A stretch of 64,000 nucleotides of DNA from Eledone cirrhosa (lineage: Eukaryota): NCBI GenBank assembly GCA_964016885.1, contig OZ024743.1:6324001-6388000 (forward strand), read 5' to 3'. The notes under the pieces are model-generated. The model had not been told where the DNA came from. It worked only from the letters and a program-made list of their open reading frames with translations, and searched no databases. Positions 17,259 through 39,198 of this stretch are shown here, one piece after another (positions within the stretch are counted from its first letter, which is position 1; the number at the start of each line of letters is the position of its first letter). The translations under genes and the position numbers were made by a program.

Positions 17259-20200
17259 TATATATATATATATATAAAATATTAAAAAAATAATGAATAA
17301 AACAATGAAACAGTTCCTTATATTAAACAAAAAAAGTTCATTATTTAACGATCGTTTCTAGGATATATATGTGTTAGAATTGGCATGCATATTCAACAGA
17401 TCTATGTACAAAATTATACAAAATTATACAAACTATCAAAATTAAATATACATACCAAACACATATATATGCCGTCTTCAGAAATAATGAAATATATTTA
17501 TTGATAATAACAACAATTCAAAATTACAGGTCTGTTTGGGAACAGAGTTCAAATTGACCAATGAAAATACAAAAAGTTTATACAGTTAGGTGTGTGTATA
17601 TATATGTAAGTAACTTCGTTCACAGATATGCATAAAGATATATGTTCACATTCATACGCATGTCAAAAAGATGTATGTAAATACAAAAATTCAAGGCTAA
17701 TGTCTCTGTATGTTTATAATCTACAGATAAAATACGTACACACATACATAAATATAAAATAAATATATACACACATTCATATACTCACACATATATGTAC
17801 ATTCACACACACACGCGCGTATACGCATAAACATACACACAACCACGAACATACATACACACATACACCCCCACACACATATATATGTGTGTATATACTA
17901 TTATCATAAGCATATGGACATTAATGCGCGCACATAAACACTGCCACACACATTTTTAGATCCAGATACAGAAAGTAGGTGGGGGGGGGGAGAAGAGGTC
18001 AGTATTACCGGTGTCAACAGACTGCCTATTTATAAATGTATCTATAAACTTAGAAATAAAAAGAAAAGAAAAGGAAAAAGAAATATATCAAGAAAATATA
18101 TATATATATATATATATATACATATACATACATATATATATATATATATATATATATATATATATATATATATATATATATATATATATATATATATATA
18201 TATATACATACACATATATATAAACAAGTAAAATATAAAATATACATCGATATACATACATATTCATATATATATATATATATATATATACACATACATG
18301 CATATACATACATATACATACACATATACACAAACACATACATACACATACATATACATACACACACCATATAAATACACATACACATACACACACGCAT
18401 ACATATAGAGACACATACATATACACATATAAATACATAGACATATACACATATACACACATATATATATATATACACATACACGCATACATATATATAT
18501 ATACATTCACAACACACGTATATATATATATATATATATATATATATATATATACACACATATCTACACACATATATAAACACACTCATGTATATACACA
18601 CATACACATACACATACCCACATATAAACATATATATATATATACACACACATATACACATACATATATATATATATATACATACACACACATACATATA
18701 TATACACACATACATACACACACATACATACTCATACATAGACATACATATATACACACACACACATACACACATACATATACGCATATATACACTTACA
18801 TACACATCCATGTATGCGTATATACATACAAACAAACACCACCACACGCTCAACACAACTCAGACATACATAGATAAAGGGATATACATACACATATATA
18901 CATATATAAATAGAGATACATATACATATATAAATATATACACACGTACACACACAAACACACATACATATACATACATACATACATACATACATATACA
19001 CACACATACACACATATACATATATATATATATATATATATATATTTATATATATATATATATACACATACATATATACATATACATATATATACATATA
19101 TATATATATATATATATATATATATATATACACATATATATAAAAAAATAAAGAAATAAGATAAATAAATAAACAAATAAATAAATTAATACATACAGTC
19201 AGACAAATATGCACACACATACATATACATATATATATATACACATACACATATATATACATAGATATATATATATATATATACACACACATACATACAC
19301 ACATATATATACACATACACACATCAACTACAAATATATATATATATATATATATATATATATATATACATATAATATATATCTATATATATATACACAC
19401 ACTCACATATACATGCGCACATACGTACACATATACATATACACACACATACACATAGACATATACATGTGCATACATATACATACACACATATACCCAC
19501 ATAAATACATAGATACATATATACATACACATATATATACACATATATATATACACACATATATACATATATATATACATATATATATATACATACAATC
19601 ATACACCCTTATTTACATGCGCACATATGTATTTTTATACTCACATACAAACACCCAAACATACATACCTACCTACATATACATACATATATCCACGCTT
19701 ACAAATACAAATAATAATAGTAGGGGGGGGAGGGGATTATAGTAAATATAGGTTTCAAGAAACATAGAATATTAATCTGCATTTAGATCATAATATGTGT
19801 TTACATAGTTTCAGTATTAGGAAATGTAAGAAAGAAGGCAAAATTATGCATTTCAATATAAGTATACCATTAATTATAGGTTAACTAAACTAAAGATAGT
19901 TAATATATTGATTTCTAAGGTGTATACTACTTAGGTTTATAATATTTGAAGCGGAATTTTGAAGTTAAATAGTAGTAGAGTATTAATTATAGTATAACTA
20001 AAATAAAATTATTAACGTTATGGTATCAATATTAGGAAATGAATTTAGTAATAGGGAAAAACAAATAAAGTATTACATCGGTAGTAGAATATAAATTATA
20101 GGTTAACTAAATTAAAAACTATATATTAATTTCTATAGTATATGTTAATTAGGTTTATAATAATTAAAATAGATATTGTATTTTATCTATAGTAGAATAT

Positions 20201-20780
20201 AATTATAGGTAAACAGAAATTAAAATTAAAATTAAAATTAATACATAGACATATACATATACATATATATATACATATATATACATATACATACATATAT
20301 ATACATACATATACATATTTTTTCAAAAATTACAAAGAATATATTAACTAGGTATATATCCAAAACCTATCTCAGTCTATGATTACATGACACTCTGCAA
20401 TCCATCTGTATTAGGATATTAATTTTAAGCCAATTAAATTAAATTTTTAGGTTGACCAAATTTAAAACCAAATTATAAATATATTTCTAAAAATGTACAT
20501 TAATTAGGTCTATAATACTAAAAATTATTTCTCTGTCATTGAATACACGATATTTTGCTATATTTTATCTGTAAAGGAATTTAAATAAAAGGTTAAATAA
20601 ATTAAAATTAATCTATAAATTAATTTACGAAGTATATATTAGTAATATTTAAAAGTTTTTCACAATTTATGATTACGCAATATTTTATAATCTCATCTGT
20701 AGTAGAATTTTAATTAAATTAAATTTATAGGTTAACTAACATTTAAATTAAATTATATATTAATTTCTAAAATAATGTTA

Positions 20781-21029
20781 TTAATTAGGTTTATAATATT
20801 TAAATGTTTTTCTTAGTTTATGATTACACGATATAATTAATTCCTGTCGTTTATTTAATAGGATATCCTTAGATTTCATTATTTCAAATAGTTCTTGGGA
20901 ACATAATCTACATTCATTTCTATTATTTTGATAAGGGGTGGCTCTTTTGAGCACACTCCAGGTCAAATCATATTCTATATTCTTATTTTTATAACTATTG
21001 ATTTTTTCTGCTAGAGATGTTGTATTAGC
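20781..21029 (-). pseudogene. GIY-YIG endonuclease C-terminal fragment (Naiad-like)
   Basis: [47 protein letters not shown], essentially identical to the end of 34374-34977. Confidence 0.85.
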
Positions 21030-22440
21030 AACATATACAACTAGAGATGTTGTATATGTATGTGTGTGTATGTATATATATATATATATATATATATATA
21101 TATATATATATATATATTTATTATATGTGGGTGTGTATGTATATATATCTTTATATATGTGTATGTGTATGTGTGGGTATGTGTGTGTGTATATATATAT
21201 GTGTATGTATATATATATATATTTATGTATATGTATATATATATATATGTATGTGTATATGTGTGTGTATATATATATATATGTTTATATGTGGATATGT
21301 ATGTGTATGTGTGTATGTATGTATATACATGAGTGTGTTTATATATGTGTGTAGATATGTGTATATATATATATATATATATATATATATATATATATAT
21401 ATATATATATATATATATATATACGTGTGTTGTGAATGTATATATATATATGTATGCGTGTATGTGTATATATATATATATGTGTGTATATGTGTATATG
21501 TCTATGTATTTATATGTGTATATGTATGTGTCTCTATATGTATGCGTGTGTGTATGTGTATGTGTATTTATATGGTGTGTGTATGTATATGTATGTGTAT
21601 GTATGTGTTTGTGTATATGTGTATGTATATGTATGTATATGCATGTATGTGTATATATATATATATATATATATATATGTATATGTATGTATATCGATGT
21701 ATATTTTATATTTTACTTGTTTATATATATGTGTATGTATATATATATATATATATATATATATATATATATATATATATATATATATATATATATATAT
21801 ATATGTATGTATATGTATATATATATATATATATATTTTCTTGATATATTTCTTTTTCCTTTTCTTTTCTTTTTATTTCTAAGTTTATAGATACATTTAT
21901 AAATAGGCAGTCTGTTGACACCGGTAATACTGACCTCTTCTCCCCCCCCCCACCTACTTTCTGTATCTGGATCTAAAAATGTGTGTGGCAGTGTTTATGT
22001 GCGCGCATTAATGTCCATATGCTTATGATAATAGTATATACACACATATATATGTGTGTGGGGGTGTATGTGTGTATGTATGTTCGTGGTTGTGTGTATG
22101 TTTATGCGTATACGCGCGTGTGTGTGTGAATGTACATATATGTGTGAGTATATGAATGTGTGTATATATTTATTTTATATTTATGTATGTGTGTACGTAT
22201 TTTATCTGTAGATTATAAACATACAGAGACATTAGCCTTGAATTTTTGTATTTACATACATCTTTTTGACATGCGTATGCATGTGAACATATATCTTTAT
22301 GCATATCTGTGAACGAAGTTACTTACATATATATACACACACCTAACTGTATAAACTTTTTGTATTTTCATTGGTCAATTTGAACTCTGTTCCCAAACAG
22401 ACCTGTAATTTTGAATTGTTGTTATTATCAATAAATATAT

Positions 22441-37900: not shown

Positions 37901-38510
37901 TTGATATATTTCTTTTTTCTTTTTTCTTTTTCTTTTCTTTTCTTTTTATTTCTAAGCTTATAGATACATCTATAAATAAGCAGTCTGCCGAAACCGTTGA
38001 ATACTGACCTCTCCCACCCACCCACCTAATTTCTGTATCTTGATCTAAATGTGTGTGGCAGTGTATATGTGCGTGCATTAATATCCATGTGCTTATGATA
38101 ATATTATATCCACATATATATGTGTGTGGGGGTGTGTGTGTGTATGTATGTTCGTAATTATGTGTATGTTTATGCATATACGCGCGTGTGTGTGTGAGTG
38201 TACGGATATGTGTGAGTATGTGAATATGTGTATACACTTATTTCATATTTATGTGTCTATACGCATTTTATCTGTGGATTATAAACTTACAGAGACATTA
38301 GCCTTGAATTTTTGTATTTGCATACATCTTTTTGGCATGCGTATGCATGTTGAGCATATATCTTTGTATAAATATGTGTACGAAGTTAATTACATGTATA
38401 TGCACACACCAAACTGCATAAAAAAATTTTTGTATTTTCATTGGTCAATTTGAACTCCGTTCCCAAACGGACCTGAAATTTTGAATTGTTGTTATTATCA
38501 ATAAATATAT

Positions 38511-38665
38511 TTCATTATTTCTGAAGACGGCATATATGTGTGTTTGGTATGTATATTTAATCTTGATAGTTTGTATAATTTTGTATAATTTTGTACATAG
38601 ATCTGTTGAATATGCATGCCAATTCTAACACATATATATCCTAGAAACGATCGTTAAATAATGAA
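38511..38665 (+). ncRNA. Extended-stem-II hammerhead, copy 2
   Basis: Same architecture and length as 22441-22595. Confidence 0.75.
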
Positions 38666-39198
38666 CTTTTTTTGTTTAATATAAGGAACTGTTTCATTGT
38701 TTTATTCATTATTTGTTTAATATTTTATCTTGACTCTGTATTCCGTTTATCTTTCACGGAAAGTGATTTTTCATTGCATCTCTTCTTTCCATGATATCCG
38801 GAATACATTGAGTTCTTCATACGGATTGGACACTACCGTAAACTCTTGGTAGATTTATCTATATATATATATATATATATATATATATATATGCATGTGT
38901 GTGTGTGTGTGTTTGTGTATCTGTGTGTATGTGTATGTATGGATATGTTGATATATATGTGTGTGTCTATGTATGTGTATACGTATGTGTTTGTATATAT
39001 ATATATATACACATATATATGTGTGTGTGTGTATGTGTGTGTGTATATGTGTGTGTATGTATATATGTGTGTGTATGTAATTGTGTGTGTGTGTGCATGT
39101 GTGTTTATTTTTCCTTTCCTTCTTCCTTTTCCAGCCTCACTTTCATATAGATTATATTTTTGTTTTAAAATCTAGTGTCAATAAATACACCAGGATTT

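Follow-up and report, generated by a model that had tools for sequence, protein, structure and literature searches.

The origin of the inverted repeats of Penelope-like elements (PLEs) is called an open question by both Craig et al. 2021 (PMC8557442) and Frangieh et al. 2024 (PMC11167929). Here we describe two insertions of one PLE family within a 64,000-nucleotide stretch of Eledone cirrhosa DNA (assembly GCA_964016885.1, contig OZ024743.1, positions 6,324,001 to 6,388,000 of the forward strand), henceforth referred to as the window, in which copy 1 occupies positions 17274-22790 and copy 2 positions 31564-38860. Both are head-to-head pairs of inverted arms, and each copy is probably one 5'-truncated insertion into (TA)n, generated by two-sided target priming.

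An in vitro precedent for such a mode of insertion is provided by Frangieh et al. 2024 (PMC11167929), according to whom a purified PLE protein, for which a dimer is predicted, cleaves the two strands of the target, extends each of them and starts synthesis at two sites that bound the tail, the choice between these start sites being reported as free. The element in question, Poseidon PAc of the green anole, parallels in vitro what is proposed here with regard to its two reverse transcriptase (RT) start sites bounding the tail, its AT-rich targets, a hammerhead upstream of the start sites and the cutting and extension of both strands, but it belongs to another clade and has a shorter tail. In the main text of that paper both-strand extension is not used to explain genomic inverted arms, nor is a strand difference in start site reported; the word 'inverted' occurs there once, for a blocking nucleotide. 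A second comparison is offered by L1 twin priming (PMC11702581, bioRxiv 10.1101/2024.08.27.596794), where two target ends prime two complementary DNAs (cDNAs) that lie head-to-head and are joined by microcomplementarity, the two product lengths being strongly correlated (R = 0.76). The second L1 primer, however, acts at a variable internal site and the pieces barely overlap, whereas in the present family the second start is fixed 132 nt away and the overlap is of kilobase size (about 1.4 kb in copy 1, 2.8 kb in copy 2). Thus, twin priming in the L1 sense is matched in that two inverted pieces meet by their 5' ends at a joint showing microhomology or joining scars, but not with respect to minimal overlap. 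Finally, the palindromes located at head-to-head Penelope joints have led these joints to be interpreted as products of self-priming (Arkhipova et al. 2013, PMC3846280); that model shares with our copies the head-to-head layout and an optional tail on one inverted repeat, but it needs a palindromic joint, whereas neither copy has a joint that is palindromic or symmetric and the arms of copy 1 are not nested. Two-sided priming as the cause of PLE inverted arms was not found in the literature searched.

The arms of both copies are unequal in length, with the 3' ends of the element facing outward, and (TA)n adjoins the outer end in all four cases. Copy 1 is composed of a tailless left arm (17274-21029, minus strand in element sense, 3,756 nt, with its 3' end on (TA)n at 17274), a templated centre insert of 23 nt (21030-21052, without assigned strand) and a tailed right arm (21053-22790, plus strand, 1,738 nt), the first base of which is equivalent to left-arm position 18700. 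Copy 2 is composed of a tailless left arm (31564-34373, minus strand, 2,810 nt, inner end equivalent to 35903) and a tailed right arm (about 34372-38860, plus strand, 4,489 nt), which meet at a joint where 2-3 nt, and at least 2, are common to both arms, this length being deduced from the reading frame. A first-pass annotation, made by a model from the sequence alone, had claimed that the left arms end at an identical base and that the right arms carry a common tail of about 132 nt, and both claims hold. The 13-mer at the left-arm end starts at 17274 and 31564, in both cases running into (TA)n, with its reverse complement at 22646 and 38716; the two left arms end on the same element base (equivalent to 22658/38728), and both right arms go 132 nt past that base. 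The resulting tails (22659-22790 and 38729-38860, plus strand, 132 nt each) differ at 2 of 132 sites. The same annotation had pointed to a reciprocal asymmetry, which we can confirm: the tailless arm is the longer one in copy 1 and the shorter one in copy 2, and the endonuclease (EN) fragment of copy 1 (20781-21029, minus strand) belongs to the tailless arm, that of copy 2 (34372-34977, plus strand) to the tailed one.

The tailless end is a fixed end of the family that recurs outside this assembly, as loose ends at 38728 that give way to (AT)n were found in at least six contigs of run X1 and in at least 425 raw reads of run X21. This search compared the 911-nt stretch 37950-38860 with contigs and restriction-site-associated DNA reads, drew on 22 of 367 loose-end entries with a longest listed piece of ~210 nt, the pieces being too short to connect a joint with a tail, and is informative for the tailless end only, the tailed end being the last base of the compared stretch. 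In run X21, 72 reads sharing one start also represent an opposite-strand joint, 38593/38730, which would fit non-overlapping arms, with a tailed piece that may consist of the tail alone; its orientation is not given and it was not counted.

The two arms of each copy are very similar to one another. Those of copy 2 are nested and colinear, with 2,799 matching sites over 2.8 kb as against 7 substitutions and 4 small indels, while those of copy 1 differ by about 3-4 substitutions and 7 indels over an overlap of about 1.3-1.4 kb. In an alignment of all four arms across the 3' 840 columns, 56 sites separate copy 1 from copy 2 with both arms of each copy in agreement, and four other sites vary; the arms of each copy therefore derive from one source element. 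Between copies, 58 substitutions were counted in the 3' 950 nt (~6%) and a single one in the common endonuclease stretch (247 matches), in addition to the two in the tail. This pattern bears on the idea that the arms represent two separate insertions, placed back to back within a single (TA)n run. It is true that (TA)n runs in this region gather many elements and that both copies adjoin other inverted elements, but the 5' ends are joined directly, there is no target (TA)n between the arms, and the 56 copy-specific sites shared by the arms of a copy are set against a divergence between copies of ~6%, by which separate insertions are largely refuted and would be the most improbable of the explanations considered. 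None of the sites in the four-arm alignment is side-specific, i.e., distinguishes left from right arms rather than one copy from the other, and arm variants that switch sides consequently give no test of a later inversion.

The centre of copy 1 is where competing explanations part. Neither of its arms is nested in the other: the tail is located on the short arm, while the long arm carries 2.3 kb of extra 5' sequence (an inner overhang of about 2,330 nt). Close to the centre the arms are, moreover, not colinear, owing to a 159-nt indel and three clustered small changes (21295-21325). The ~159-nt segment (21075-21233, plus strand) is present in the short arm and missing from the long arm, and is flanked by (TA)n runs within which its edges are uncertain. 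At its single non-repeat landmark, the longest exact match is 35 nt to copy 2, as compared with 12 nt to the long arm of copy 1 and 13 nt to the remaining window, and the segment would thus appear to be family-type sequence. As the long arm lacks it, copying from that arm would not have produced it, and a later flip of the centre would not account for its presence in the short arm either.

A further argument is provided by the 23-nt insert, which consists of a direct repeat of 21011-21025 and an 11-bp hairpin whose second half spans the joint; apart from the copy 2 homologue of 21011-21025, neither piece was found elsewhere in the window. When parsed inward from the short arm on the cDNA strand, the insert can be resolved into 12 nt copied from the long-arm end, where the microhomology measures 3 nt, followed by a snap-back of 10 nt and a single further nucleotide, whereas a parse outward from the long arm requires four pieces with an RNA template and seven without. 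The inward parse being the most economical, a free 3' end belonging to the short arm itself was probably directed at the centre; the comparison is one of parsimony on 23 nt, with a local template window of 60 nt chosen by the analyst. The polarity of the insert would likewise be unaffected by a later flip of the centre. Templated inserts of this kind are typical of polymerase-theta-type end-joining or of RT template jumps.

These two observations weigh on an origin by fold-back, in which the end of a single cDNA folds back (or an antisense RNA primes itself) and the first arm serves as template for the second, copy 1 having later been inverted and having lost 159 nt from its long arm. Such a scheme has the support of the published self-priming interpretation of head-to-head PLE joints (PMC3846280), and it is compatible with the nested and colinear arms of copy 2 and with the near-perfect palindromes that are common in this window (five of nine other pairs, see below). 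Furthermore, near-identical inverted arms of ~1.4 kb would be able to recombine, and the (TA)n lengths differ between arms in both copies. It nevertheless requires two later events in copy 1 although the arms differ by only about 3-4 substitutions, and it requires the less economical parse of the insert followed by a further switch to an internal site, while a flip alone leaves both the 159-nt segment and the insert polarity unexplained. We therefore consider fold-back unlikely for these copies. Since the arms of copy 1 are non-nested and are joined by an insert that appears to have been written from the short arm, two cDNAs are favoured over fold-back.

It could also be argued that asymmetry and indel alike are artefacts, copy 1 having had its centre mis-oriented between near-identical arms during assembly, or the arms having been partly homogenised or mis-polished. 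Structures of this type trouble assemblies according to PMC8557442, and no spanning read or contig is present among those listed for the 911-nt stretch, the longest piece being that of ~210 nt mentioned above. The window, however, is without any N, the arms keep private substitutions, and at 38016 and 38020 the family-majority base sits in the other arm of copy 2, indicating that the arms were resolved separately. A locally templated 23-nt insert is, in addition, not something that an assembler invents, and mis-orientation would leave its polarity and the indel in place. An assembly effect is thus regarded as very improbable, more so than fold-back.

We infer, then, that two cDNAs were made and that their ends were joined, with the insert of copy 1 synthesised inward from the short arm. 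Under two-sided priming, the endonuclease would cut both strands of a (TA)n target, upon which each cut 3' end would prime its own cDNA, one from the outer start site, giving the tailed arm, and one from 132 nt further in, giving the tailless arm. Both cDNAs would extend toward the 5' end of the element and stop early at different points, and their ends would be joined at the centre, through 2-3 nt of common sequence in copy 2 and after two short templated extensions in copy 1, followed by the filling of gaps. That the two start sites cause the tail to be present or absent is an analogy carried over from another clade and may apply here as well. The earlier proposal of two priming sites and two cDNAs remains the best reading and gains new support from the 159-nt segment and the insert parse, while the Naiad identity with which it had been combined falls away, as detailed below. 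Its further suggestion that the two arms are truncated independently is not supported, as two copies cannot test it, five of nine other inverted pairs are near-symmetric and the product lengths of L1 twin priming are correlated.

Several points weigh against two-sided priming. There are only two copies, of which only copy 1 discriminates, as copy 2 is just as compatible with fold-back. With (TA)n runs on both of its sides, the 159-nt difference could have arisen later by a slippage deletion or reflect an error in the consensus, and the insert argument is one of parsimony within a chosen template window of 60 nt around 23 nt of sequence. Both ends of each copy are located inside (TA)n, so that target-site duplications are unreadable, and the in vitro precedent concerns a Poseidon element with a 30-40-nt tail rather than a Hydra element with 132 nt. 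Near-perfect palindromes are, moreover, what self-priming predicts (PMC3846280), and in a hand-picked set of nine other inverted pairs in the window the centres of five are near-perfectly symmetric (spacers of 0, 0, 1, 3 and 11 nt), the remaining four having spacers of 91-942 nt. A hammerhead core is present in two of the nine, one with a spacer of 0 and one with 942; only one of the five near-perfect palindromes therefore has such a core, and most of them are thus not established as PLEs. Near-equal arms fit fold-back, and they also fit a pair of identical cDNAs that anneal to one another where a palindrome occurs locally. Of 79 related loci (metagenome, 1-7 kb), 6 have head-to-head joints whose inner offsets measure 333-1,292 nt, which counts in favour of two-sided priming, but these loci were selected for the endonuclease, their contigs stop before the tails, and none has both outer ends of an inverted pair. 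A textbook layout is displayed by one related locus, L057, with an inverted piece (14-130), a partial tandem copy (147-640) and a main copy (671-1990).

A more far-reaching version of two-sided priming, which we put forward tentatively and would ourselves rate as rather doubtful, is that the PLE inserts as a dimer carrying two RNAs, one per target strand, with an outer-site and an inner-site subunit. Every head-to-head insertion would then possess a tailed arm and a tailless one whose lengths differ freely, and the 159-nt indel together with the clustered changes of copy 1 would be a record of two template molecules.

Publications already describe inverted arms, the placement of a tail at either end and a pair of RT start sites, and what is new are the non-nested content of copy 1 and the direction of its insert. 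The element itself is an ordinary one and a useful mechanistic lead, as copy 1 gives, without any need for further experiments, two sequence tests that part fold-back from two-sided priming, namely non-nested arm content and the writing direction of joint inserts, and a family with a 132-nt tail and kilobase arms is well suited to a census. If two-sided priming from fixed starts were the rule, the both-strand activity observed in vitro would be linked to genomic structure, and twin priming would be a normal mode of PLE insertion and not an accident as in L1.

As regards the identity of the element, the first-pass annotation had labelled both copies Naiad, an assignment that does not stand. According to Craig et al. 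2021 (PMC8557442), Naiad elements have an N-terminal endonuclease, a CX2-5CxxC linker, CCHH and no canonical hammerhead, whereas the Hydra clade is characterised by a C-terminal endonuclease, a CxCX5C linker, CxxC before a conserved E, CxH after a conserved N and the absence of CCHH. Copies 1 and 2 do share with Naiad, as described there, (TA)n targeting, 5' truncation, an inverted copy and a tail on one side; a Naiad identity is nevertheless ruled out by the C-terminal endonuclease, the CxCX5C linker, the lack of conserved CCHH and a hammerhead-like motif in four of four arms. On its C-terminal endonuclease, its linker and its hammerhead-like motif, the element is assigned, from sequence features, to an ordinary family of Hydra-clade Penelope-like retrotransposons. 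With Hydra-1_Amil, Hydra-2_Ajap and Hydra-1_Obim, as shown in PMC8557442, it has in common the C-terminal endonuclease and the CNCR..CPL..CL..VY..YIG linker region, and with the clade as described there the CxxC before the conserved E, the CxH after the conserved N, non-conserved CCHH, a hammerhead motif and (TA)n targets. In the supplement of that paper, 'CNCR' falls in the Hydra block in five of five places (four named Hydra and one Penelope-1_NV). The linker differs from that in the Hydra-1_Obim row, and the element therefore probably belongs to a different family.

The endonuclease fragment of copy 2 (201 aa) comprises the CxCX5C linker, a VY..YIG core, CxxC-E, N-CxH and a stop codon at 34975-34977, and is followed by about 3.9 kb of noncoding, AT-rich and microsatellite-rich 3' region with no RT after it; that of copy 1, identified from the open reading frame (ORF) list and by tblastn, represents the C-terminal part of the Hydra-type GIY-YIG ORF through the stop codon. 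Both copies are 5'-truncated and lack RT, and with it the region in which Naiads would show a DKA motif, IFD, CxC and a KR block between EN and RT, and Hydra elements RWK and DKT in the N-terminal part of RT. Eight longer relatives were found among 473 candidates, at 34-51% identity and including one named relative from Argonauta, and all eight end in this endonuclease domain, downstream of RT or thumb sequence. RWK is present in four of them, with DKT in three and DKS in one, the remaining four being N-terminally incomplete. C61, C63, C69, C159, C162, E165, N178, C187 and H189 are invariant in all eight aligned sequences, among which neither a conserved Cys pair inside the GIY-YIG core nor the CCHH cysteines were found. 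No match to GIY-YIG was returned by Pfam for the fragment or its relatives, nor any match by a PDB sequence search, and the name GIY-YIG is based on the motif and on the alignment in PMC8557442. The ~3.9 kb microsatellite-filled 3' region contrasts with Hydra elements, which are generally <3 kb in total (PMC8557442), and the 132-nt tail with the 30-40 nt described for PLEs in general. Within this 3' region copy 2 contains a ~575-nt tandem duplication at 36795-37545 (and 32728-33480), where copy 1 has a single ~575-nt unit and other segments instead. The microsatellite region is thus rearranged between sister copies, whereas these are still about 99% identical in the endonuclease end, the ribozyme and the tail.

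The hammerhead-like motif of the copy 1 tailed arm (22441-22595, plus strand) would be of type I, with a 10-bp stem I, a core at 22451, a long stem II, a palindromic mini stem III and a predicted cut after 22585; further such motifs are located at 17337-17491 (minus), 31627-31781 (minus) and 38511-38665 (plus). A type I hammerhead with a palindromic mini stem III is described in PMC4209133. A pattern scan returned eight matches in the window, of which four fall within the arms of the two copies, whereas 20 shuffled sequences gave none. Where stem II is closed at the core, a non-canonical pair takes the place of the usual G-C, and cleavage is a prediction. No hammerhead family was present among the Rfam matches listed (150 of 258), where only microsatellite-driven microRNA matches below cut-offs appeared, and the 24-nt hammerhead pattern was found in no stretch of the viral contigs and none of the prokaryote genomes. 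Hammerhead cleavage was considered as the origin of either element end and rejected, the ends being located 73 and 205 nt downstream of the cut that is predicted. The tail of copy 2 is predicted to fold into one long hairpin, placed between the two proposed start sites, and a small terminal hairpin (z = -4.1 for 38715-38860). Hammerhead-like motifs of other families were noted at 15229-15355, 16214-16424, 52734-52957 and 39206, the last of which precedes a degraded element with RT and endonuclease at 39263-41165.

A second PLE family in the window, which we take to be Neptune-like and whose C-terminal endonuclease is of the CxxC-linker type, is represented at 28185-29901, 49935-51817 and 1780-1995. 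Its copy at 28185-29901 is arranged head-to-head, its left arm being short and tailless and its right arm long with a ~60-nt tail, and the joint shows 1-nt microhomology; the end of the copy at 1780-1995 falls approximately on the tailless site. The stretch 31035-31487, which shares a (TA)n run with copy 2, is a perfect palindrome with one hammerhead motif per arm, its left arm being tailless and its right arm ~90 nt longer. The inverted pairs 62082-62640, 16548-17258 and 2945-3172 have spacers of 11, 227 and 1 nt, respectively, a one-sided extension of ~85-105 nt and one end at or near (TA)n; no hammerhead core was found in these three pairs. At 48945-49083, in a relative of 2945-3172, no more of the extension than its outer 50 nt is joined to the opposite arm, the two having 2 nt in common. 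This unit was set aside as proof of non-overlapping arms, as the base at which its arm begins is also that of the 2945-3172 palindrome's centre, a deletion from such a palindrome explains it equally well, and the family is not established as a PLE.

Copy 1 itself is embedded in a train of elements (16460-23410) that are parted only by (TA)n, with related short ends at 16429-16524 and 23364-23459 pointing inward. Elsewhere in the window, by-eye labels from the ORF list suggest a Ty3/gypsy-like gag-pol remnant on the minus strand (4658-8370) and the end of an RTE-like long interspersed element with zinc fingers (9422-10622).

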